In this document: in pieces, positions 40,351-48,954 of the stretch | How the letters are laid out: each line of letters opens with the position of its first letter | Position numbering within the stretch: the stretch's first letter is position 1 | Source of the DNA: Candidatus Saccharicenans sp. | GTDB taxonomy: Bacteria; Acidobacteriota; Aminicenantia; Aminicenantales; Saccharicenantaceae | Direction of reading: 5' to 3' | DNA: 64,000 nucleotides | Assembly (NCBI GenBank): GCA_026414545.1 | Contig: JAOAIU010000007.1 | Span: 39,261 to 103,260, forward strand | Notes under the pieces: model-generated | Told to the model about the DNA's origin: nothing | Databases searched by the model: none | What the model saw: the letters and a program-made list of their open reading frames with translations, nothing else | Made by a program: the position numbers and the translations under genes

Positions 40351-41466
40351 TCAGAGCTTCTCAGCAACGGCCAGGGCCACGTCCAGCGTTTTGGCCGAAC
40401 CTCCAAGGTCATAGGTTCTGACTTTACCTTCCTTTATCACCTCGGCAATGGCCTGTTCCAGGACTGTTGCCCTGTTGGTCTCACCCAGCCAGTCCAGCAT
40501 CATCTTGGCTGCCAGCAGGGTGGCGATGGGATTTACCTTGTACAGGCCAGTGTACTTGGGCGCTGAACCATGAGTGGGTTCGAAGACGGCATACTTATCG
40601 CCGATATTCCCGGCACAGGCAAAACCCAGTCCCCCGACCAGCTGGGCCCCGAGGTCGGAAATGATGTCGCCGAATAGATTCTCGGCCACCAGCACGTCAT
40701 AATCGTGAGGATTCTTCAGCAACCACATGCACATGGCATCTACGTTGGCTTCGTAGAACTTGATGTCGGGGAACTCGGTCGCTACCTGGCGAGCTACCCT
40801 CAGCATCAGGCCTCCGGTCTCTCGCAGGACGTTGGGTTTTTCTACCAGGGTAACTGATTTACGGTTATACTTCCGGGCATATTCAAATGCGGCCCGGACG
40901 ATACGTTCGCAGCCCTTCCTGGTCATGATCCGGGTAGAGACGGCTATTTCATCCGCCGGGACATCCTTGAAATCCTTCATCTTGGGGTGGAGCATAAAAG
41001 CTTCCCTGACCTTATCGGGCAGCGGATAGAATTCTACCCCGGCATAGCTGCCCTCGGTATTCTCCCTGAAAATCACCAGGTCTATGCCTTCTTTATAATT
41101 CAGCGGGTTGCCTGGATAAGCTTTACAGGGCCTGAGGTTGATATAGAGGTCAAACAGCTGCCGCAACTTCACGATCGGGCTGACATATGACAGACCCTTC
41201 CCCCGTAGTTCCGGAGCCAGCTCGGCAGCGGCATCTTCCTTGGGCTTGGAGGTGATAGCTCCGAACAGGCAGGCATCGGTTTCCTTCAAGAGCTTGATGG
41301 TCCTGTCAGGGAGAGCATTCCCCTCCTTGCACCAGAACTCCCAGCCGATGTCTCCATAGATATACTCGGCGTCCAGGTTCAGCCGCTCCAGGACAATCAT
41401 GGCCGCTTCAATCACTTCCTTGCCGATCCCGTCGCCGGGCAAAATAGCCAGTCGATACTTTGCCAT
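40351..41466 (-). CDS. Isocitrate/3-isopropylmalate dehydrogenase family protein
   Basis: LAILPGDGIGKEV, FRENTEG and NLFGDIISDLGAQLVGGLG motifs. The specific substrate (isocitrate, IPM or homoisocitrate) cannot be assigned from sequence alone. Confidence 0.8.
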   Translation of the reverse strand: MAKYRLAILPGDGIGKEVIEAAMIVLERLNLDAEYIYGDIGWEFWCKEGNALPDRTIKLLKETDACLFGAITSKPKEDAAAELAPELRGKGLSYVSPIVKLRQLFDLYINLRPCKAYPGNPLNYKEGIDLVIFRENTEGSYAGVEFYPLPDKVREAFMLHPKMKDFKDVPADEIAVSTRIMTRKGCERIVRAAFEYARKYNRKSVTLVEKPNVLRETGGLMLRVARQVATEFPDIKFYEANVDAMCMWLLKNPHDYDVLVAENLFGDIISDLGAQLVGGLGFACAGNIGDKYAVFEPTHGSAPKYTGLYKVNPIATLLAAKMMLDWLGETNRATVLEQAIAEVIKEGKVRTYDLGGSAKTLDVALAVAEKL

Positions 41467-41607
41467 TATGGTTCTCCTTCTGGAATTTTTGTTGGTTGAG
41501 GTTGGTATTATGCCTGAAAATTAGCTTTTCTGTCAATCAACTCTGGAAACAGCTCCTGGCAGCCAGTCCGGTAATGGTTCCATTTCTCCAGAAATGGGAA
41601 AAGCCGC

Positions 41608-41637
41608 AAAAAAAGGGCTCCCCGCAGGAAGCCCTTT
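41608..41637 (-). terminator. Rho-independent terminator after the ECF module (8-bp GC-rich stem + U7)
   Basis: Minus-strand reading: AAAGGGCT-tcctgcgggg-AGCCCTTT followed by TTTTTTT. Stem 41612-41619 / 41630-41637. A-run 41608-41614 on the plus strand. Lies 24 nt downstream of the 41661-42047 gene. Confidence 0.55.
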
Positions 41638-41660
41638 CCCGTAACCTCGACCGAATTCAG

Positions 41661-42047
41661 CTATTCCAGCCAGACCTTTACCGTCTCCTCTTCCTCGTTG
41701 ACTTCGATGATGGCCAGCGGCCCGACTTTCTTGAGTTCGGCCAGCAATTCCGGCAGGTTCAGGCTGCAGCCATCGCGCCCCAGCTTGACTTCCTTGTTGT
41801 CAGCACAGCGGGCGAAGATCTCCACCAGGGTGAGGGGCATAGTAATCTTGACTTTTTCTTTACCGGTCTTGGTATCTGTCACCAGCACTTTGAACCATTT
41901 AACTTCCTTGGCCGTCTCAACTTTTGAGTTCTCCTGGACTGCTTTCTTGATCACCTGATAATCGTCCTTATCACCAGCCGGAAACAGGCTGGAACTCAGA
42001 AACAACAACCCCAGAAGCATCACCGTGATCACGACTGCTTTTTTCAT
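41661..42047 (-). CDS. Secreted protein (128 aa) with conserved C-terminal W-L-E domain; paralogue of 42076-42933 and 44348-44755 genes
   Basis: ATG with an AAGGAG SD. Signal peptide. C-terminal FKVLVTD...ITMPLTLVEIF...NLPELLAELKK...IIEVNEEEETVKVWLE aligns with the C-termini of the two other secreted proteins in the operon. Confidence 0.5.
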   Translation of the reverse strand: MKKAVVITVMLLGLLFLSSSLFPAGDKDDYQVIKKAVQENSKVETAKEVKWFKVLVTDTKTGKEKVKITMPLTLVEIFARCADNKEVKLGRDGCSLNLPELLAELKKVGPLAIIEVNEEEETVKVWLE

Positions 42048-42075
42048 TTTGTTTCTCCTTTTCTCTGACTTTTAT

Positions 42076-42933
42076 CTATTCAATCCAGATTTCGATGATG
42101 TTGCCATCTTCTTCTATCCGGACGAGTTTCTCTTTAGCCCGGGCCAGGTCGGAAATGATGCGGTCGAGGTCATAGCCTTTTTCTTTTATCTTTGCTTTTT
42201 CCTCTTCGGAAATGGCCTGGATGGCCAGGTCGGCCAGGGCCAGGGGTAAGTTCATTGACAGGCTGGGAACCTTCTTCCCCTTTTCATAGACCCTGATTTT
42301 CAGCAAACGCAAGCCTTCCCTTGCCGGCCGGTCGGGAACATCTTTCAGGGCCCGCGGGGAAATCCTGAGGATGGCAATCCTGGCCCGGTCCACCAGTTCC
42401 TGATCCTTTTCTGTTTCTATCAATTTGAGCAGCACTGGCAGGGCCTGGCCGGCCAGGTCCTTATCTTTAAGGTAACTCATCTTCATTGCTGCATAGTACC
42501 TGATGACCCGGTTGGGACTGGATAGCCTGTCCTGAAGCAACCGGCTGTATTCCTTCTGACCCTGGCTGAAAAGACAGAAGGCCAGGTCGATGATGGCTAT
42601 CTCGGCCTCTTCCACCAAGCCCTGGGGGCGATCCGGTCTCTTCAGGAAAGCTTCGAAGGAACCCAGGGCTGCCTTTTCCTTTCCACTCTGCTCTGACTGG
42701 CACTTGCCGAGATAAAACAGGGCCTGGGAATAATAGCCGCTCTTCGGGTGGTTATTGACCAGGACCGCCAGTTTCTTCTCGGCCTCAGACCAGTTCTTGT
42801 CAAATATCAAGAGTTTGGCTTCCTGTAGCAGCTTCTCGTCTTCGCCAATTCTGGCCTGTCCGAGTATGGGCAGCCCGCCCTCAAGAGTCAGAAGCAGCGC
42901 TATTATTAATATCGTTTTTCCTTTTATTTTCAC
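42076..42933 (-). CDS. Secreted helical-repeat (TPR/HEAT-like) protein (285 aa) with conserved C-terminal W-I-E domain
   Basis: GTG start 1 nt after the anti-sigma stop. Signal peptide. Helical repeat region (YYSQALFYLGKCQ..., RYYAAMKMSYL...). C-terminal LKIRVYEKGKK...SMNLPLALADLAI...DLDRIISDLARAKEKLVRIEEDGNIIEIWIE. Confidence 0.5.
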   Translation of the reverse strand: MKIKGKTILIIALLLTLEGGLPILGQARIGEDEKLLQEAKLLIFDKNWSEAEKKLAVLVNNHPKSGYYSQALFYLGKCQSEQSGKEKAALGSFEAFLKRPDRPQGLVEEAEIAIIDLAFCLFSQGQKEYSRLLQDRLSSPNRVIRYYAAMKMSYLKDKDLAGQALPVLLKLIETEKDQELVDRARIAILRISPRALKDVPDRPAREGLRLLKIRVYEKGKKVPSLSMNLPLALADLAIQAISEEEKAKIKEKGYDLDRIISDLARAKEKLVRIEEDGNIIEIWIE

Positions 42934-42934
42934 T

Positions 42935-43726
42935 TCAAACCTCGCCTTGCTGGAGTTCTTTTTTGACCAGGTTTATTTTAAGCAGGAGTTGCTTTTCTTC
43001 GACTAACTCCCGGACCTTTTGCAGTTCCCCTGCTGACAGCTCCGGGCTCAACTGGCTGAGCTCCAGGAACAACAGCTCAATCTGGTCGCAGATAGCCCGA
43101 GCCTTCATCAACCGCCAGTCATCGAGCTGGTTATTCAGGTATTTTTTTTCGGTCAGGAGCTGCCGGATCTTTTCCTGGTGGATAAAACCCGATTCCCCCG
43201 GCTTACTGTTCTGAAGAAGGTCGAGCAGAAGATACTGACTACGTTCCAGGTAATCTATAGTCTCCCGGCGGGCCAGGGCTACATCCACCCGCTCCACCAG
43301 GTCTGCCGGCCAGGTTAGCCCTGCTTCCTGGCGGGGTATCAAGGCTCCGGGTTTCTGGGGCTTGAGGAGCATAAAAGTCAGGGCCCCGCCCAGCAGCAAT
43401 CCCAGGAAAAGCCCGGCCGCCACCGGCTGCCATTTCCAGGCCCGCCAGCGTGAGGGAGAAACAGCTGGCATTTTCTGTTCTTTCTGTTGCCACACTTTTT
43501 CGGTTATTTCCCCGGGGAGCGACTCCCAGTCTACCGTGGCCATAACCTCTTCAATTTCTTTTTTGAAGCCTGCGGCCAGCGAGATTATTTTTCGGGTTTC
43601 TTCCAGCTCAGTCCGGCAGCCGGGGCAAACTCGCAGGTGGGCAACGATTTCTTCTTCCTTTCCAGGAGGAAGCTGACCAGCAATAAATGCCGGCCACTCT
43701 TTTTTATATTTACTGCAGACCTTCAT
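42935..43726 (-). CDS. Anti-sigma factor, zf-HC2 type, single-pass membrane protein with periplasmic coiled-coil domain
   Basis: N-terminal HLRVCPGCRTEL Zn-finger (HxxxCxxC). TM segment VAAGLFLGLLLGGALTFMLL. Overlaps the ECF sigma gene by 4 nt. Confidence 0.7.
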   Translation of the reverse strand: MKVCSKYKKEWPAFIAGQLPPGKEEEIVAHLRVCPGCRTELEETRKIISLAAGFKKEIEEVMATVDWESLPGEITEKVWQQKEQKMPAVSPSRWRAWKWQPVAAGLFLGLLLGGALTFMLLKPQKPGALIPRQEAGLTWPADLVERVDVALARRETIDYLERSQYLLLDLLQNSKPGESGFIHQEKIRQLLTEKKYLNNQLDDWRLMKARAICDQIELLFLELSQLSPELSAGELQKVRELVEEKQLLLKINLVKKELQQGEV

Positions 43727-44301
43727 CGGTCACCTCTCAGGCTGGGGGACAGAGTCTTTCTCAGCTTGTTGATAGCCTTAAAGTGAAGGGATTTGACCGT
43801 GCCCAAAGCAATTCCCAGACGATCGGCTATCTCCTCGTACTTCAGTTCATCATAATGATGCAGGACAAACACCAGCCTCTGTTTTTCGGGCAGGGCCTGG
43901 ACCGCCCGGTAGACCAGTTCCCTCGTCTGAAACCGGTCCGGGTCTTCCCGTCCGACCGCCAGGTCAGCCCGGTCCAGGTTCAAGCCATCCAGGCTACTCT
44001 TTTTCCTGGTTTTGTTGCGCCGTAGAAAATCGATGCTCAGGTTCCTGGCAATCTGCATCAACCAGGCCTGGAAACTTTCACCGGCACGGTAGCTTTGAAT
44101 TTTTTCATACAGCCGGAGGAAAACTTCCTGGACCAGGTCCAGAGCATCTTCCCTGTCCCGGACCATGGAGTAGGCCAGGATGAAGACCTTCTGTTGATAG
44201 GCAGCCACGATTTTCATGAAAGCTTCCCGGTCTCCATTTTTAATCCGGTCAACCAGATATTCAACCTGCGGTTGAACTGTCCGACCATTTTTCTGTTCCA
44301 T
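43723..44301 (-). CDS. ECF-subfamily RNA polymerase sigma-70 factor
   Basis: Region 2 (FMKIVAAYQQKVFILAYSMVRDREDALDLVQEVFLRLY) and region 4 (LPEKQRLVFVLHHYDELKYEEIADRLGIALGTVKSLHFKAINKLRK). Confidence 0.85.
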   Translation of the reverse strand: MEQKNGRTVQPQVEYLVDRIKNGDREAFMKIVAAYQQKVFILAYSMVRDREDALDLVQEVFLRLYEKIQSYRAGESFQAWLMQIARNLSIDFLRRNKTRKKSSLDGLNLDRADLAVGREDPDRFQTRELVYRAVQALPEKQRLVFVLHHYDELKYEEIADRLGIALGTVKSLHFKAINKLRKTLSPSLRGDR

Positions 44302-44347
44302 CCTCTGACTCTGTCCCCGGTTGTGGCCTCTCGTCCATAGTATATTC

Positions 44348-44755
44348 TTATTCCAGCCATAAAAGCACCCTTTCCCGGTCGGTCATGACCTCGGCCAGAA
44401 ACCCCGGCGGCATCTCACCGACCGCCCGGCCGAATCCGTTCATATCAAATTCAAAATCCTGGTCGTGCGGACGGGCCGCGTTTGCGTCTTCAGGCTTCAA
44501 TCCCTTTTTGATCAACCAGAAGGGCAGGGAAATCCTGAGGAGTTGGGCCTGGTTAGGGTCGTAGACCAGCATTTTCAGGCGATGTGGGCGGTCCGAAGAC
44601 GAAGAATGGAGGGATAATTGCATAACCCGATGTCTGGTGTTCTGCCATTCAAGATCAGCTTGACTTTCTGTTTTTTCCACCGCCACCACCAGACAGGAAG
44701 ACAGGGTCAACAGGATGGCGGTTATGATCAGCGGGGCCTTCAATCCAGATAGCAT
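44348..44755 (-). CDS. Putative lipoprotein (135 aa) with conserved C-terminal W-L-E domain; first gene of the ECF module
   Basis: Start reassigned to the ATG at 44753-44755, which has a perfect AAGGAG SD 6 nt upstream. The track GTG start at 44782 would translate the SD itself. Lipobox-like LTLSSC. C-terminal LKMLVYDPNQ...ISLPFWLIK...FLAEVMTDRERVLLWLE. Confidence 0.5.
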   Translation of the reverse strand: MLSGLKAPLIITAILLTLSSCLVVAVEKTESQADLEWQNTRHRVMQLSLHSSSSDRPHRLKMLVYDPNQAQLLRISLPFWLIKKGLKPEDANAARPHDQDFEFDMNGFGRAVGEMPPGFLAEVMTDRERVLLWLE

Positions 44756-44786
44756 CTTGCTCTCCTTTTTTCTGGTTATCACCAGA

Positions 44787-44816
44787 AATTACGGAGAACA
44801 GGAACCGAAGGTTTAC
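44787..44816 (-). promoter_or_regulatory. Candidate ECF-type promoter (GTAAACC-N16-CGTAAT) driving the ECF module
   Basis: Minus-strand -35 GTAAACC (plus 44810-44816), 16-nt spacer, -10 CGTAAT (plus 44788-44793). The predicted TSS is about 25 nt upstream of the lipoprotein ATG. It fits the AAC-N16-CGT architecture common to ECF sigma promoters. Confidence 0.4.
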
Positions 44817-44906: not shown

Positions 44907-45209
44907 TCAGAATTTACGGAAATTTCTTCTCTGTTGTGGCCCGGAACCGAACCGGCGTTCACCGCCGCTTTTCTTCTCGCCCTTCGGTCTGGCGTCATTG
45001 ACTATGATCTTGCGGCCGTCAAACTCGGTCCCGTTGAGCTTGTCCTTAGCTTCCTGGGCGCCTTCTTCGGTTGACATTTCCACAAAGCCAAAGCCCCGAC
45101 CCTGCAGGATGTTAACTGAGGTAACTTCTCCGTACTGAGAAAATAATTCCTTCAGTCTGTCCTCGGTGGTCTTGTAATTTAAGTTACCCACATAAAGCTT
45201 TAAAGACAT
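44907..45209 (-). CDS. RRM-type RNA-binding protein (glycine/arginine-rich tail)
   Basis: Start at the ATG at 45207-45209 with a GGAGG SD. RNP2 LYVGNL and RNP1 RGFGFVEM. C-terminal RGG-like tail. The track ORF carries a spurious N-terminal extension. Confidence 0.8.
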   Translation of the reverse strand: MSLKLYVGNLNYKTTEDRLKELFSQYGEVTSVNILQGRGFGFVEMSTEEGAQEAKDKLNGTEFDGRKIIVNDARPKGEKKSGGERRFGSGPQQRRNFRKF

Positions 45210-45332
45210 AAAAAAAACCTCCTCGACCTCTCCATATCGGATGCCCCCTGAAAGGAAGGAACAACTCGATTGAAAAGGCAGAATTAATGATGCCACATCA
45301 AAAAGCCAAAATCAATAAAAATTTTTTGAAGG

Positions 45333-47132
45333 TCAGGTAGGAGGATGCAGGCGCTTCTTGAACCAGACCCGGAGCCGCTCCATCTTCTCCCGCTGACCGG
45401 CCGGGGCCCGTCGCCGGCAGGTCGACATTTCCTCTGAATCCGGCCTGGCCCCCCAGCGGATTTCGGGGCAATCATTGGGGTTATATCCCATTTCAAAGGC
45501 TTCTTTTCTTCTTAAGATTTCTTCCAGGGTCAGAACCTGCAGCCGTCCGTCGGACCTGGGGTAGGAAATATACAGGCTGCTGGCCAGCTCTGCCGATAGC
45601 TTCTGCAGCCTGACCCGAATCTCTCCGGGCTTTTCTGAGTTTTTTGTGCGGTACATTTCCGGATGAGCAGCGACTTTATCCGGAAATTCCTCGATGGTAT
45701 CCATGGCAATCAACAACCGCAAATCGCGATTGGGGGTGGAAAAATCTTCCCAGGGCCCCGAAGCCAGAAAGACGCCTGCCCCGGAGGGCATAGGTATTAC
45801 CTGCCCAGGATGAGCCCTCATGTATTTTTCTCCATTCTCCACCGATTCCACCCTGACCAGGAGTTGCTCGTAAAGAGCCTGGAATAACTCCCTGAGGGCT
45901 GTCTCCGGGTCCAGGGGACGGGGGTTGATGAGTCTTTCCATACGGTCATAAAAAAGTTCAGGCTCCAGGTTTCGCTGTTGGAGAGAGTAATTTCCGTAAT
46001 CCGGGCTTTCCTGAATTTCCCGGTTTGACAGCAACCTCAGCCGACCCTGAGACCTGACAACCGGCCTGAAGGCCTTAAAACCTGGTTCTCCCACCACTTC
46101 GGAGGTGGCAAACAGAAAATTACCTTTCCAGAACCGTTTTAACCCCACCGTTCCGTCGGGCTGAGCATCCACCGCCAGCAGGACGCCTGGCCTGGAGTCG
46201 GTCTGCGGTTCCCAGCGGACGATAACCAGCGTGTGACCATAAGGGTCGGCATAAACCGTTCCCGGCCTGAGCGCTTCCCGCGAAAGGGGCAGAGGATAAT
46301 AATCCGAGTTCTCCTGGTCGAGAGCCATCCGGCCCGTTCCGGAGTGCACCGCGTTCATCACCATCCGCATCAGCCGTCCAAATTTTTCGGTCTCGGTCCC
46401 CTCGCCGGCTGGCAGCTCGTTGTGGAACCATCGACCGGGATTCGGTGGAGTAACTAGCGACCCGCGCGAACACTCGTGGAAACCAAAGGGAAGCCTCATC
46501 TTCCAGGAAAAGTAAGCCCTGAGAAAAAATGGATTATCAGCGCAATCCGGCCTGAGTTTCAATAGGCCATCCTCATTCTGCCCGAGATGGTCATGAAGGA
46601 AGTTATGACCAGGCCGGTTGAGGACCGAATTCAAGTCCGGCCAGGAGTCTTTTTCGCTGGCCTCATGGAACAGGGCATCCAGCCAGGCTGAAAACAGATT
46701 CTCCTGATTCCTGTCCCAATCCTCTTCTGACTTCCAGAAAAAGTTCGTTCTGACCAGGGCCGGCCGCTCGGCTTCCACCAGAACCACCCTTGATTCAAGG
46801 GTTTTTCCACCCTGAAGTATTTCAAGCCGGTACTGTCCCGGCTGGCGAATCTGTCCCTCCCACCAGAACCAGAATGGAGGGCCGCCTCCTTTCTTCCTGA
46901 GCTCCAGTTTCAGTTTTTCCCCTTCCTCCCTGCGAAATTTGACCTCTATCCGGCCTGCCACCGATTCCTCCTCTGTTACCACTAGCAAGCGGAACCCGGA
47001 ATCCGGACTCAGGCGAGCCGGAGAAATTAGAACACTTAGCTTCGGCTCGGCCACCCCGGCTCCGATGAGCTGGCCAGAAATTAACCACAGCAGACAGCCG
47101 GTCAGCCAGAAAAATTGGCCAATTCTTTTCAT
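45333..47132 (-). CDS. Secreted hypothetical protein (599 aa), no recognisable domain
   Basis: Signal peptide, long ORF with typical codon usage, divergent from sppA. No family-level motif could be assigned by inspection. Confidence 0.5.
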   Translation of the reverse strand: MKRIGQFFWLTGCLLWLISGQLIGAGVAEPKLSVLISPARLSPDSGFRLLVVTEEESVAGRIEVKFRREEGEKLKLELRKKGGGPPFWFWWEGQIRQPGQYRLEILQGGKTLESRVVLVEAERPALVRTNFFWKSEEDWDRNQENLFSAWLDALFHEASEKDSWPDLNSVLNRPGHNFLHDHLGQNEDGLLKLRPDCADNPFFLRAYFSWKMRLPFGFHECSRGSLVTPPNPGRWFHNELPAGEGTETEKFGRLMRMVMNAVHSGTGRMALDQENSDYYPLPLSREALRPGTVYADPYGHTLVIVRWEPQTDSRPGVLLAVDAQPDGTVGLKRFWKGNFLFATSEVVGEPGFKAFRPVVRSQGRLRLLSNREIQESPDYGNYSLQQRNLEPELFYDRMERLINPRPLDPETALRELFQALYEQLLVRVESVENGEKYMRAHPGQVIPMPSGAGVFLASGPWEDFSTPNRDLRLLIAMDTIEEFPDKVAAHPEMYRTKNSEKPGEIRVRLQKLSAELASSLYISYPRSDGRLQVLTLEEILRRKEAFEMGYNPNDCPEIRWGARPDSEEMSTCRRRAPAGQREKMERLRVWFKKRLHPPT

Positions 47133-47241: not shown

Positions 47242-48954
47242 ATGAAAAAGCGAGTTCTCTGGATATTGCTTATTGTCTTCTTCTTCATATTGATAATCGC
47301 TCTGGGGCTTTCTTATTTCTTTTACAAAATAGGGCCGAAAGAAGCTGTCGTGGCCGGGAATTCTTACCTGGAAATAAAGCTGGAAGGAAGGCTCGATGAT
47401 TATTCTCCGTCCATTCCCTTCCTAGAATTCTTCCCGGAAAGAACCCTTTCCCTTTTTGACATCTGGATGAACCTGCGCAAGGCAGCCAGGGATTCCAGGA
47501 TTAAAGCCGTAGTCATAAAATTCGGGATGCTGGAAGCTGACTGGGCCAAGATGGAAGAGTTGCGGCAATCAGTCCTGGCTTTCAGAGAATCGGGCAAGCC
47601 GGTTATCGCCTATTTTGAAGAATCTCCCGAGGCCGACAAAGAATACTACCTGGCTACCGCCTGCAACCGGATTGTCCTGCACCCCCTGGGCTGGCTGGGA
47701 ATCAATGGCCTGTCCGCCTACGTTCCCTTTTTCAAGGGGGCGCTGGACCGCCTGGGGATCAGGGCCGAGTTCGAACACATCGAGGAATACAAGACTGCCT
47801 ATAACCAGTTTACCGAAACCGGCTTCACCCCAGCTCACCGGGAAATGCTGCTTTCGATATATGAAGATATCTTCAATTATTATCTGAAGGAAATCGCTTC
47901 CGCCCGGCAAAAGACACCAGAAGAGATGCGGCAGCTGATTGATAAGGGATACTTCAACGGCCAGGAAGCAGTGGCCAGCGGCCTGGTGGATGAGCTGGCT
48001 TACGAGGACCAGCTCTTCCAGAAAAGCGGACTGGAAAAATACCGGGAACTTACACGCATCACCAATGAGAAATACGCCAGCGTCAGGCCGGAAGGGCTGG
48101 GGTTGAACCTGGGCCGGAAGGTAGCCCTGATTTTTGCCAGCGGGACAATTCTCAGCGGTTCGGCCGAACAGGTGGCCCTGGGCAGCGAGACCTTTAGCCG
48201 CTGGTTGCGAGCCGCGGTCAAAGACAGGTCCATCGAAGCCATTATCGTCCGGGTGGACAGTCCCGGCGGTTCGGCCGTAGGTTCCGACATCATCTGGCAT
48301 GAACTGGTCAAGGCCCGGAGTGAAAAACCGGTGATAATCTCCATGTCCGGCCTGGCCGGTTCTGGCGGCTACTGGCTGTCTCTCGGCGGGCACAGGATCA
48401 TCGCCCAGCCCCAGACCCTGACCGGTTCCATCGGGGTGATAGCCGGCAAGTTCAGCTTCGAAGGCCTGATGAAGAAATTGGGGCTTACCGCCGACCGGCT
48501 GGTAATTGGAAAGAACGCCGATGCGTTATCCGTTTACCGGAGCTTTACTCCCGAGGAAAGGAAGATTTTGAGGGAAGAAATCAGTTATATTTATGACCAG
48601 TTCCTGGAGCGAGTGGCTACAGCCCGCAACCTTCCCCTGGAAGAAGTGGAACGGCTGGGCCGGGGGCGGGTCTGGACCGGACGTCAGGCTAAAGACTTGA
48701 AATTGGTTGACGACCTGGGAGGCCTGTTCCAGGCCATGGAGTCTGCCCGGCAGCTGGCCGGGATTCCCCCGGAAACCGAACTCAGGCTGGTGGTCTGGCC
48801 AGCCAGGCGCAGCCTGTGGGATATCATCCTGGGCAGAAAAACGGAACTGGCCCGGACTGGGTCAACGAACGAGCTGCTGTCCCGCGCCCGGGAAATGCTG
48901 GAAATATTTTCGCGGGCCAGGATCTGGACCATGATGCCTTTCTGGGTGTATTGA
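47242..48954 (+). CDS. sppA: Signal peptide peptidase SppA, 67K type (tandem S49 domains)
   Basis: N-terminal TM. Two ClpP/crotonase-like S49 modules, including SGGYW...GSIGV. AGGAGG RBS. Confidence 0.85.
   Translation: MKKRVLWILLIVFFFILIIALGLSYFFYKIGPKEAVVAGNSYLEIKLEGRLDDYSPSIPFLEFFPERTLSLFDIWMNLRKAARDSRIKAVVIKFGMLEADWAKMEELRQSVLAFRESGKPVIAYFEESPEADKEYYLATACNRIVLHPLGWLGINGLSAYVPFFKGALDRLGIRAEFEHIEEYKTAYNQFTETGFTPAHREMLLSIYEDIFNYYLKEIASARQKTPEEMRQLIDKGYFNGQEAVASGLVDELAYEDQLFQKSGLEKYRELTRITNEKYASVRPEGLGLNLGRKVALIFASGTILSGSAEQVALGSETFSRWLRAAVKDRSIEAIIVRVDSPGGSAVGSDIIWHELVKARSEKPVIISMSGLAGSGGYWLSLGGHRIIAQPQTLTGSIGVIAGKFSFEGLMKKLGLTADRLVIGKNADALSVYRSFTPEERKILREEISYIYDQFLERVATARNLPLEEVERLGRGRVWTGRQAKDLKLVDDLGGLFQAMESARQLAGIPPETELRLVVWPARRSLWDIILGRKTELARTGSTNELLSRAREMLEIFSRARIWTMMPFWVY

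Follow-up and report, generated by a model that had tools for sequence, protein, structure and literature searches.

A conserved ECF sigma factor operon of Candidatus Saccharicenans encodes three predicted exported paralogues with an uncatalogued C-terminal domain

Within a 64-kb window (the whole stretch of DNA that was analysed, whose numbering is used throughout) from a metagenome-assembled genome (MAG) of Candidatus Saccharicenans (Aminicenantes, phylum Acidobacteriota), a compact minus-strand operon encodes a sigma factor of the extracytoplasmic function (ECF) type, a putative zf-HC2 anti-sigma factor and three predicted exported proteins, designated here A, B and C, which by profile comparison are related in their C-terminal domains. 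We consider this locus best explained, with a probability of about 0.5, as an autoregulated ECF envelope-signalling operon, conserved throughout the class Aminicenantia and present again in divergent loci of higher GC content, in which the accessory proteins regulate the anti-sigma factor. The regulatory core is ordinary, and the novelty lies in a widespread exported domain family that is uncatalogued and without a solved structural relative. ECF factors are the most abundant alternative sigma factors, and to our knowledge neither the signal nor the accessory proteins that deliver it are known for most ECF groups. We know of almost no genetics in the phylum to which Aminicenantes belong, and a search for literature on ECF systems in Aminicenantes found none.

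The accessory proteins A, B and C share a C-terminal domain

The first-pass annotation of the window had described the C-termini of the three non-regulatory proteins as clearly alignable. This did not hold in pairwise comparison, as BLASTP of A, B and C gave E=0.03 for an out-of-register fragment, E=0.6 for another pair and no alignment for the remaining one, but it did hold at the profile level. Family profiles cut to the domain were compared, built from more than 170 orthologues of A, 169 of B and 21 of C, of which all those bearing organism names were labelled Aminicenantes, Saccharicenans or Acidobacteria. The A and B profiles aligned over 81 columns (E=3e-8, 95% probability) and the A and C profiles over 76 columns (E=1e-9, 96% probability), in both cases in register to the last residue; the B and C profiles gave only E=0.025, confined to the first hairpin. 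Control targets, either column-permuted or reversed, scored at most 18, compared with observed scores of 44 and 52. As a non-circular check, hidden Markov models (HMMs) of single families were run on the 609 stop-to-stop open reading frames (ORFs) of the window. The A-only HMM ranked B (1.7e-4) and C (2.2e-4) at the top, with the next decoy at 0.11, and reciprocally, A was detected by the B-only HMM at 8e-7 and by the C-only HMM at 3e-4. Exactly three copies of the domain were found in the window. Based on the profile significance, the controls and the cross-detection by single-family HMMs, A, B and C are, as judged from sequence, paralogues in their C-terminal domain, with B and C linked solely via A, and the earlier description of three predicted exported paralogues with one common C-terminal domain was thereby upheld.

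That the likeness is convergent or compositional, as might arise among short amphipathic beta-hairpins of small secreted proteins, and not a mark of common descent, is very improbable. Convergence would agree with the non-significant BLASTP pairs, with the noise-level score of the direct B-C comparison and with the unlike domain centres in the models of A and B described below; it is opposed by A-B and A-C alignments that span the full domain in register to the C-terminus at E values and scores far from those of the controls, by single-family HMMs that placed the other families above all 606 decoy ORFs, by the invariance of P26 and W81 in the merged alignment, and by the recovery of 1,369 clusters carrying the C-terminal domain with one profile.

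The domain is a predicted alpha/beta fold with a variable middle

In the merged domain alignment of 61 sequences, with A-domain numbering, P26 and W81 were invariant and L29 and L60 nearly invariant. An AlphaFold2 model of the A domain generated from this alignment (pLDDT 85.6, pTM 0.71) has the topology bb-a-bb-a-bb, in which two beta-hairpins, the second of them small, are each followed by a helix and a third beta-hairpin forms the C-terminus. The model of full-length B (pLDDT 87.5) contains the same outer elements, with a helical middle in place of the small hairpin, and because the middle is a small hairpin in the one model and a helix in the other, it is regarded as a variable insert. The models thus depict an ~80-residue alpha/beta domain composed of a beta-hairpin, a helix, a variable insert, a helix and a beta-hairpin ending W-h-(E/D), and the earlier notion of one common domain is to be corrected in that its middle differs between the modelled paralogues. 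The C-terminal WLE forms the final beta-strand of the fold (pLDDT ~92) and leaves no free tail. A W(L/I)E ending had been reported for all three proteins; it was retained in A, where 80 of 80 orthologues end W-[LFI]-E, and in most B (W-I-[ED]), whereas the last residue varies among C orthologues, which keep W-[LI].

The three proteins place this domain behind different N-terminal regions. Protein A consists of a signal peptide, a DDYQxIKKAV motif (residues 28-37) and the domain (46-128), ending KVWLE; the motif might act as a helix that docks, for instance, into the TPR groove of B. Residues 28-40 of A (DDYQxIKKAVxEN) are conserved as strongly as the domain core, with D29, K35, A36 and V37 invariant. 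A-like proteins of other lineages bear similar motifs (NWRVIKNAV, DDFKVIKKAV and DDLAVVKRAV). In protein B, the signal peptide is followed by a TPR/HEAT-like alpha-solenoid (31-198), connected through a flexible linker to the domain (~210-285), ending EIWIE. The TPR part of its previously proposed TPR/HEAT-like repeats was matched by Pfam TPR_6, but the HEAT_2 match was weak and under its cut-off. Protein C has the lipobox LSSC, a short N-terminal region and the domain (~55-135), ending LLWLE, and a lipobox-like motif was found in 42 of 48 C orthologues.

The domain defines a large family outside current catalogues

Pfam and NCBIfam scans returned no match for the last 80 residues of any of the three proteins, the merged profile found no relative among PDB sequences (best E 0.3), and Foldseek comparison of the A-domain model with the PDB gave a best E of 0.21 and a top query-normalised TM of 0.40 among the listed matches. 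The domain has no entry in Pfam, NCBIfam or the PDB and is uncatalogued, and the earlier view that it belongs to no named family was borne out. A profile search of 1.84 billion cluster representatives recovered 1,369 proteins at E<=1e-3, of which 226 reached E<=1e-10, giving a family of at least 1,369 clusters at 50% identity, every named member of which is annotated as 'hypothetical protein'. An N-terminal hydrophobic stretch was seen in 124 of the 148 new representatives, the majority of which terminate in W-h-[ED]. The architectures include A-like single-domain proteins (~125 aa), B-like proteins (~285 aa), lipoprotein-like proteins (~135 aa), a large group with two tandem copies (180-196 aa) and rarer forms, one of them with a SHOCT-like linker. 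Such a family would merit a Pfam entry and structure determination.

The tandem members are each trailed within ~10-80 nt by a smaller gene encoding an N-terminal transmembrane segment (L005 5726-6154, L007 855-1049, L008 834-1199 and L093 5611-6072; L numbers denote loci). By eye, these smaller genes seem to hold one and a half domain copies, the HMM score being significant for L005 alone: the gene directly downstream of the tandem protein there encodes a further membrane-anchored paralogue (E=2e-6), and the layout of L093 is similar. This suggests a recurrent duo of secreted and anchored domain proteins. In L094 (2066-3239) and L095 (3-1026), a 240-aa protein that lacks an obvious signal peptide is composed of one domain, a SHOCT-like_DUF2089-C linker and a second domain, and is encoded by a gene overlapping a DUF2089 zinc-ribbon gene at the latter's end. 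DUF2089 proteins are believed to be putative regulators, and these loci would be a second pairing of the domain with a possible regulator, here probably in the cytoplasm.

DUF4252, which the first-pass annotation had named as a candidate identity, found no support: the sequence-level Pfam model matched none of A, B and C even at E<=1. The Pfam scan of the 148 representatives yielded sub-threshold matches only, to DUF6432 in nine, to DUF7545 in six and to DUF4252 in four (best E=0.011). We regard it as improbable that the domain is a very divergent DUF4252 branch and the module the Acidobacteriota version of the Bacteroidota ECF/DUF4252 operon. Besides the four weak matches, this idea draws on the sigma factor, which comes nearest the cut-off for two Bacteroidota NCBIfam types (TIGR02985, 117/126 bits; sigma_PG0214, 112/130 bits), and on Porphyromonas gingivalis PG0214-PG0218 and PG0985-PG0987, which consist of an ECF sigma gene, a hypothetical gene and DUF4252 genes. 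Against it, 144 of the 148 representatives and ten further candidates had no DUF4252 match, the other four representatives scored far under the gathering score, and the unrelated DUF6432 and DUF7545 matched equally weakly. If this were true, the family would already be catalogued, though uncharacterised.

As whole operons, the Bacteroidota ECF sigma/DUF4252 operons, for example those two of P. gingivalis, are the closest analogues. Under oxidative and nitric-oxide stress, the genes of each P. gingivalis operon are regulated together (PMC10101095, PMC11018363, PMC10434189). Like them, the present operon combines an ECF sigma factor, a small membrane or hypothetical protein and at least one exported protein of one DUF-like family, and relative to curated cut-offs its sigma factor is nearest to Bacteroidota ECF models, scoring under the cut-off of both. 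The match is one of context, namely an exported protein gene beside an ECF sigma gene, and not of sequence. Unlike in the DUF4252 operons, the accessory proteins do not match the DUF4252 model (PF14060), the anti-sigma factor can be recognised as zf-HC2 and has a conserved periplasmic domain of 140 residues, and one paralogue, B, carries a TPR/HEAT solenoid. Since the function of DUF4252 is itself unknown, the analogy yields no mechanism.

The sigma and anti-sigma factors form a standard ECF pair

The sigma factor matched Sigma70_r2 (residues 32-97, 8e-20) and Sigma70_r4_2 (128-180, 5e-17), which together with its length of 192 aa is the make-up of an ECF factor. It scored 116 bits against the TIGR02937 sigma70-ECF model (cut-off 42.9), and its closest solved relatives were SigW, sigma-H and RpoE (E ~1e-23 to 1e-24). 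By these matches it is a standard ECF factor of the SigW/RpoE type. As expected for an ECF factor, an anti-sigma gene lies immediately downstream, and this is kept in 64/64 loci. The anti-sigma factor matched zf-HC2 (PF13490) at residues 4-38 (8e-7, 29.4 bits against a cut-off of 22.2) and contains the zinc motif H30-x3-C34-x2-C37, HxxxCxxC being present in 66 of 73 orthologues. It is accordingly classed on sequence grounds as a class I (ASD) zf-HC2 anti-sigma factor, with sigma inhibition and zinc coordination predicted. One transmembrane helix (~99-122) is followed by a helical periplasmic domain (~123-263, ~140 residues) that had no Pfam, NCBIfam or PDB relative. The mean top-residue frequency was 0.62 in this periplasmic part versus 0.50 in the sigma-binding part, and the conserved motifs of the anti-sigma factor are RxxxxDYLERSQ, KARxICDQIELLFLEL and LLLKIxL.

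The anti-sigma factors of two divergent loci, L092 (1430-2200) and L089 (4187-5011), have two periplasmic cysteines (...PPSCRRQ..., ...LPPCA...), and the window protein has one (C213). The extra cysteine could contribute to a disulfide particular to that lineage, which might then provide a redox input.

A four-gene core is strictly conserved

A search with the A-family alignment yielded 80 of 107 confirmed species-representative genomes; synteny was counted in the 64 loci with enough upstream sequence and promoters in 66 loci. Sigma, anti-sigma, B and A were found in this order and on one strand in all 64 Aminicenantes loci, and C was located upstream of sigma in 44 of them, so that the five genes first described as the module resolve into a constant core of four and an accessory lipoprotein gene. 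Of the 20 loci without C, many had an RRM-protein gene upstream, and a few held a small unrelated ORF or a different gene in that place. Three of the loci lacking C (L021, L052 and L060; about 2380-2700, +) have an unrelated ~105-aa ORF ending ...GINVY between the RRM gene and sigma, and the AAC-N-CGT pattern was not found in them within 280 nt upstream of sigma. Most genomes of the set bear the label Aminicenantes, Saccharicenans or Acidobacteriota. Some two dozen full-module genomes (L013, L020, L028, L032 and ~20 more) go under 'uncultured Eubacteriales' and one under 'Clostridiales', probably because an automated MAG pipeline assigned them to the wrong taxon.

Furthermore, the arrangement reappears in four metagenomic loci that are divergent, and three of these have a far higher GC content (0.59-0.70). 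One contig carries sigma, zf-HC2, B and a partial downstream gene; L091 carries sigma, a 265-aa protein, B and A; L089 (70% GC), whose protein cluster, of soil Acidobacteria by name, includes a member named Acidobacteria bacterium 13_1_40CM, carries sigma, a 274-aa protein and B; and L092 (68% GC) carries the full set of a C-like gene (E=2.5e-9), sigma, anti-sigma, B and A. The anti-sigma orthologues of high-GC Acidobacteriota have the same periplasmic motifs as the window protein, and by these motifs the module is old and orthologous across Aminicenantes and divergent high-GC lineages.

The operon has its own ECF-type promoter and terminator

Both an ECF-type promoter and a terminator had been assigned to this compact ECF sigma/zf-HC2 operon, and both were found. 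The promoter has the form GTAAACCTT-N14-CGTA, with GTAAACC at -35 and CGTA at -10, and lies ~35 nt before the start codon of C. It is the sole match to GTRAACCT-N15-CGTA in the window, and in 62 of 66 loci a consensus of GTRAACCTTT-N13-(C/T)CGTA(G/A)TA precedes the module on its upstream side, before C, or before sigma where C is missing. The hexamer-like ends are conserved and the spacer sequence between them varies freely. Even the loose pattern AAC-N15-18-CGT occurred in only 19% of shuffles, compared with those 62/66 loci. Across 705 kb of orthologous loci, the strict motif was matched 55 times, exclusively on the operon strand, and in full-length loci every match sits upstream of the module. 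The earlier term 'self-contained' is therefore acceptable in a local sense, as no second promoter copy was found in the 64-kb window or in the 705 kb of orthologous flanks. The AAC-N17-CGTA (AAC-N16/17-CGT) form is one that we take to be the SigW-type ECF promoter form, and the sigma factor presumably transcribes its own operon from this promoter. With a strictly conserved five-gene (core four-gene) unit behind it, the promoter motif could serve directly in a heterologous reporter.

The terminator begins 27 nt past the stop codon of A and is composed of an 8-bp GC-rich stem, GGGCTTCC / GGGAGCCC, with the loop TGCG, followed by T7. The hairpin was contained in the RNA fold; a terminator pattern scan did not list it.

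A proposed signalling mechanism and its alternatives

In the autoregulated signalling operon that we favour, sigma would drive its own transcription from the GTRAACCTTT-N13-CGTA promoter, autoregulation of ECF factors being the usual positive loop. B and A, together with C where present, would reside in the periplasm, where their partner would be either the anti-sigma factor's outer domain or one another through the common domain; this binding would set whether the anti-sigma factor is degraded and sigma released, and the TPR solenoid of B would contact an envelope component or a client. Modulation of the anti-sigma factor by A, B and C is a reasonable inference from the strict synteny and the conserved periplasmic domain. 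The paralogues possibly pair through the common domain, an idea prompted by the abundant two-copy family proteins and the paralogue clusters elsewhere.

Functional analogues of such a system are rpoE-rseA-rseB-rseC of Escherichia coli and sigW-rsiW of Bacillus subtilis, which have a sigma factor of the same type and an anti-sigma factor of the same single-pass topology. RsiW is also a zf-HC2 protein, and RseB of E. coli controls the degradation of RseA and hence the release of sigma. The accessory genes B and A lie downstream of the anti-sigma gene in the same operon, as rseB does. Comparison of A, B and C with RseB/MucB gave neither the LolA-like fold nor a sequence match, and an RseB-like action on anti-sigma proteolysis is proposed as a functional analogy. 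The solenoid of B resembles the envelope TPR proteins BamD, CpoB (YbgF) and YfgM, a TPR similarity that is generic: B scored far under the cut-offs of the family models (28 vs 90 bits and 19 vs 81 bits), and, unlike these proteins, it has HEAT-like repeats, an unnamed C-terminal domain and a sigma-operon context instead of a tol-pal or bam one.

Several observations weigh against the favoured signalling operon. The export of A, B and C is predicted from their N-terminal sequences alone, their protein-protein contacts are inferred, and the use of the promoter by this sigma factor rests on its ECF-like form and position. C is dispensable in 20/64 genomes, and A is missing from the divergent locus L089. 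Moreover, two-copy secreted family members occur in L005 and L093 without an adjacent ECF gene, and the domain is also found in a probably cytoplasmic protein beside a DUF2089 gene; given these occurrences, the domain is not specific to ECF systems and not intrinsically an anti-sigma ligand. Finally, A, B and C could equally be the output of sigma and not its input.

This last possibility is the most serious competitor, although we think it less likely than the signalling operon. A, B and C would then be effectors without feedback on the anti-sigma factor: envelope stress would lead sigma to induce the operon, and the three proteins would serve protection or assembly in the periplasm or at the outer membrane, where B could, for example, act as a chaperone or scaffold through its BamD/CpoB/YfgM-like solenoid. 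The position of all three genes behind the same ECF promoter, the likeness of the solenoid to envelope assembly and chaperone TPR proteins and the existence of the domain family apart from ECF genes all agree with this account, and, as neither flank holds another promoter copy over 5 kb, the local regulon may consist mostly of this operon. What speaks for input over output is the strict synteny with sigma and anti-sigma in 64/64 loci, persisting in divergent high-GC lineages, which is more typical of physically cooperating parts, and the unusually conserved periplasmic domain of the anti-sigma factor, which needs a conserved partner or ligand.

A more ambitious form of the signalling operon is somewhat more doubtful still than the effector account. 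In it, the W-h-E domain would define a large family of exported bacterial proteins unrecognised until now, with a fold unrepresented among solved structures, whose paralogues form hetero-oligomers, the single-copy members pairing as in the natural two-copy proteins, and constitute a new periplasmic signal-input device for an ECF anti-sigma factor in Acidobacteriota, the TPR/HEAT arm of B sensing an envelope component. If the paralogues do control the anti-sigma factor, they would represent a new class of periplasmic ECF regulators, and this might also explain the obscure DUF4252 operons of Bacteroidota, including the stress-responsive ones of P. gingivalis. If they are merely regulon output, the result would still be a useful annotation, but an ordinary one.

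Gene layout and neighbourhood

The five minus-strand genes were confirmed at the positions first given for them by the ORF listing and by NCBI annotation, in which the same five genes are N3G18_01790 to N3G18_01810, and the originally delimited span, 41608-44816, runs exactly from terminator to promoter (Table 1). The three accessory proteins have NCBI counterparts of 100% identity on a 164-kb contig, namely N3G18_01790, N3G18_01810 and one 'tetratricopeptide repeat protein'. The longest ORF of gene C extends to 44782, and the ATG after the AAGGAG ribosome-binding site was chosen as its start. The anti-sigma start overlaps the sigma stop codon by 4 nt, and gene B starts one base past the anti-sigma stop codon.

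Table 1. Features of the operon and its flanks, in window coordinates
Feature	Position	Strand	Basis
Iso_dh gene	40351-41466		
Sigma-70-type promoter of the Iso_dh gene	41507-41536		TTGACA-18-CATAAT
Intrinsic terminator	41608-41634	-	Sequence and RNA fold
Gene A, predicted exported, 128 aa	41661-42047	-	ORF; more than 170 orthologues
Gene B, predicted exported, 285 aa	42076-42933	-	ORF; TPR_6 match
Predicted anti-sigma factor, class I zf-HC2, 263 aa	42935-43726	-	Pfam
ECF (group IV) sigma-70 factor, 192 aa	43723-44301	-	Pfam and NCBIfam
Gene C, predicted lipoprotein, 135 aa	44348-44755	-	ORF; ATG behind AAGGAG ribosome-binding site
ECF-type promoter	44790-44816	-	Motif match and conservation
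Small RNA-binding protein gene, RRM_1	44907-45296	-	E=9e-23
599-aa protein gene	45333-47132	-	
SppA-type signal-peptide peptidase gene	47242-48954	+	Peptidase_S49, E=3e-75

The gene downstream of the module, Iso_dh, has its own sigma-70-type promoter. On the upstream side, the RRM_1 gene lies directly before the module, and an RRM-type ORF is also located upstream of the module in L001-L003 and in many loci without C. We know of few studies of RRM proteins of bacteria. Further upstream are the gene of the 599-aa protein, whose N-terminus contains a hydrophobic stretch and which matched no Pfam model, and a divergent gene for an SppA-type signal-peptide peptidase, for which a role in anti-sigma turnover is conceivable. 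The 599-aa protein and SppA both recur near the module in L002 and L003, and SppA is also present in L001.

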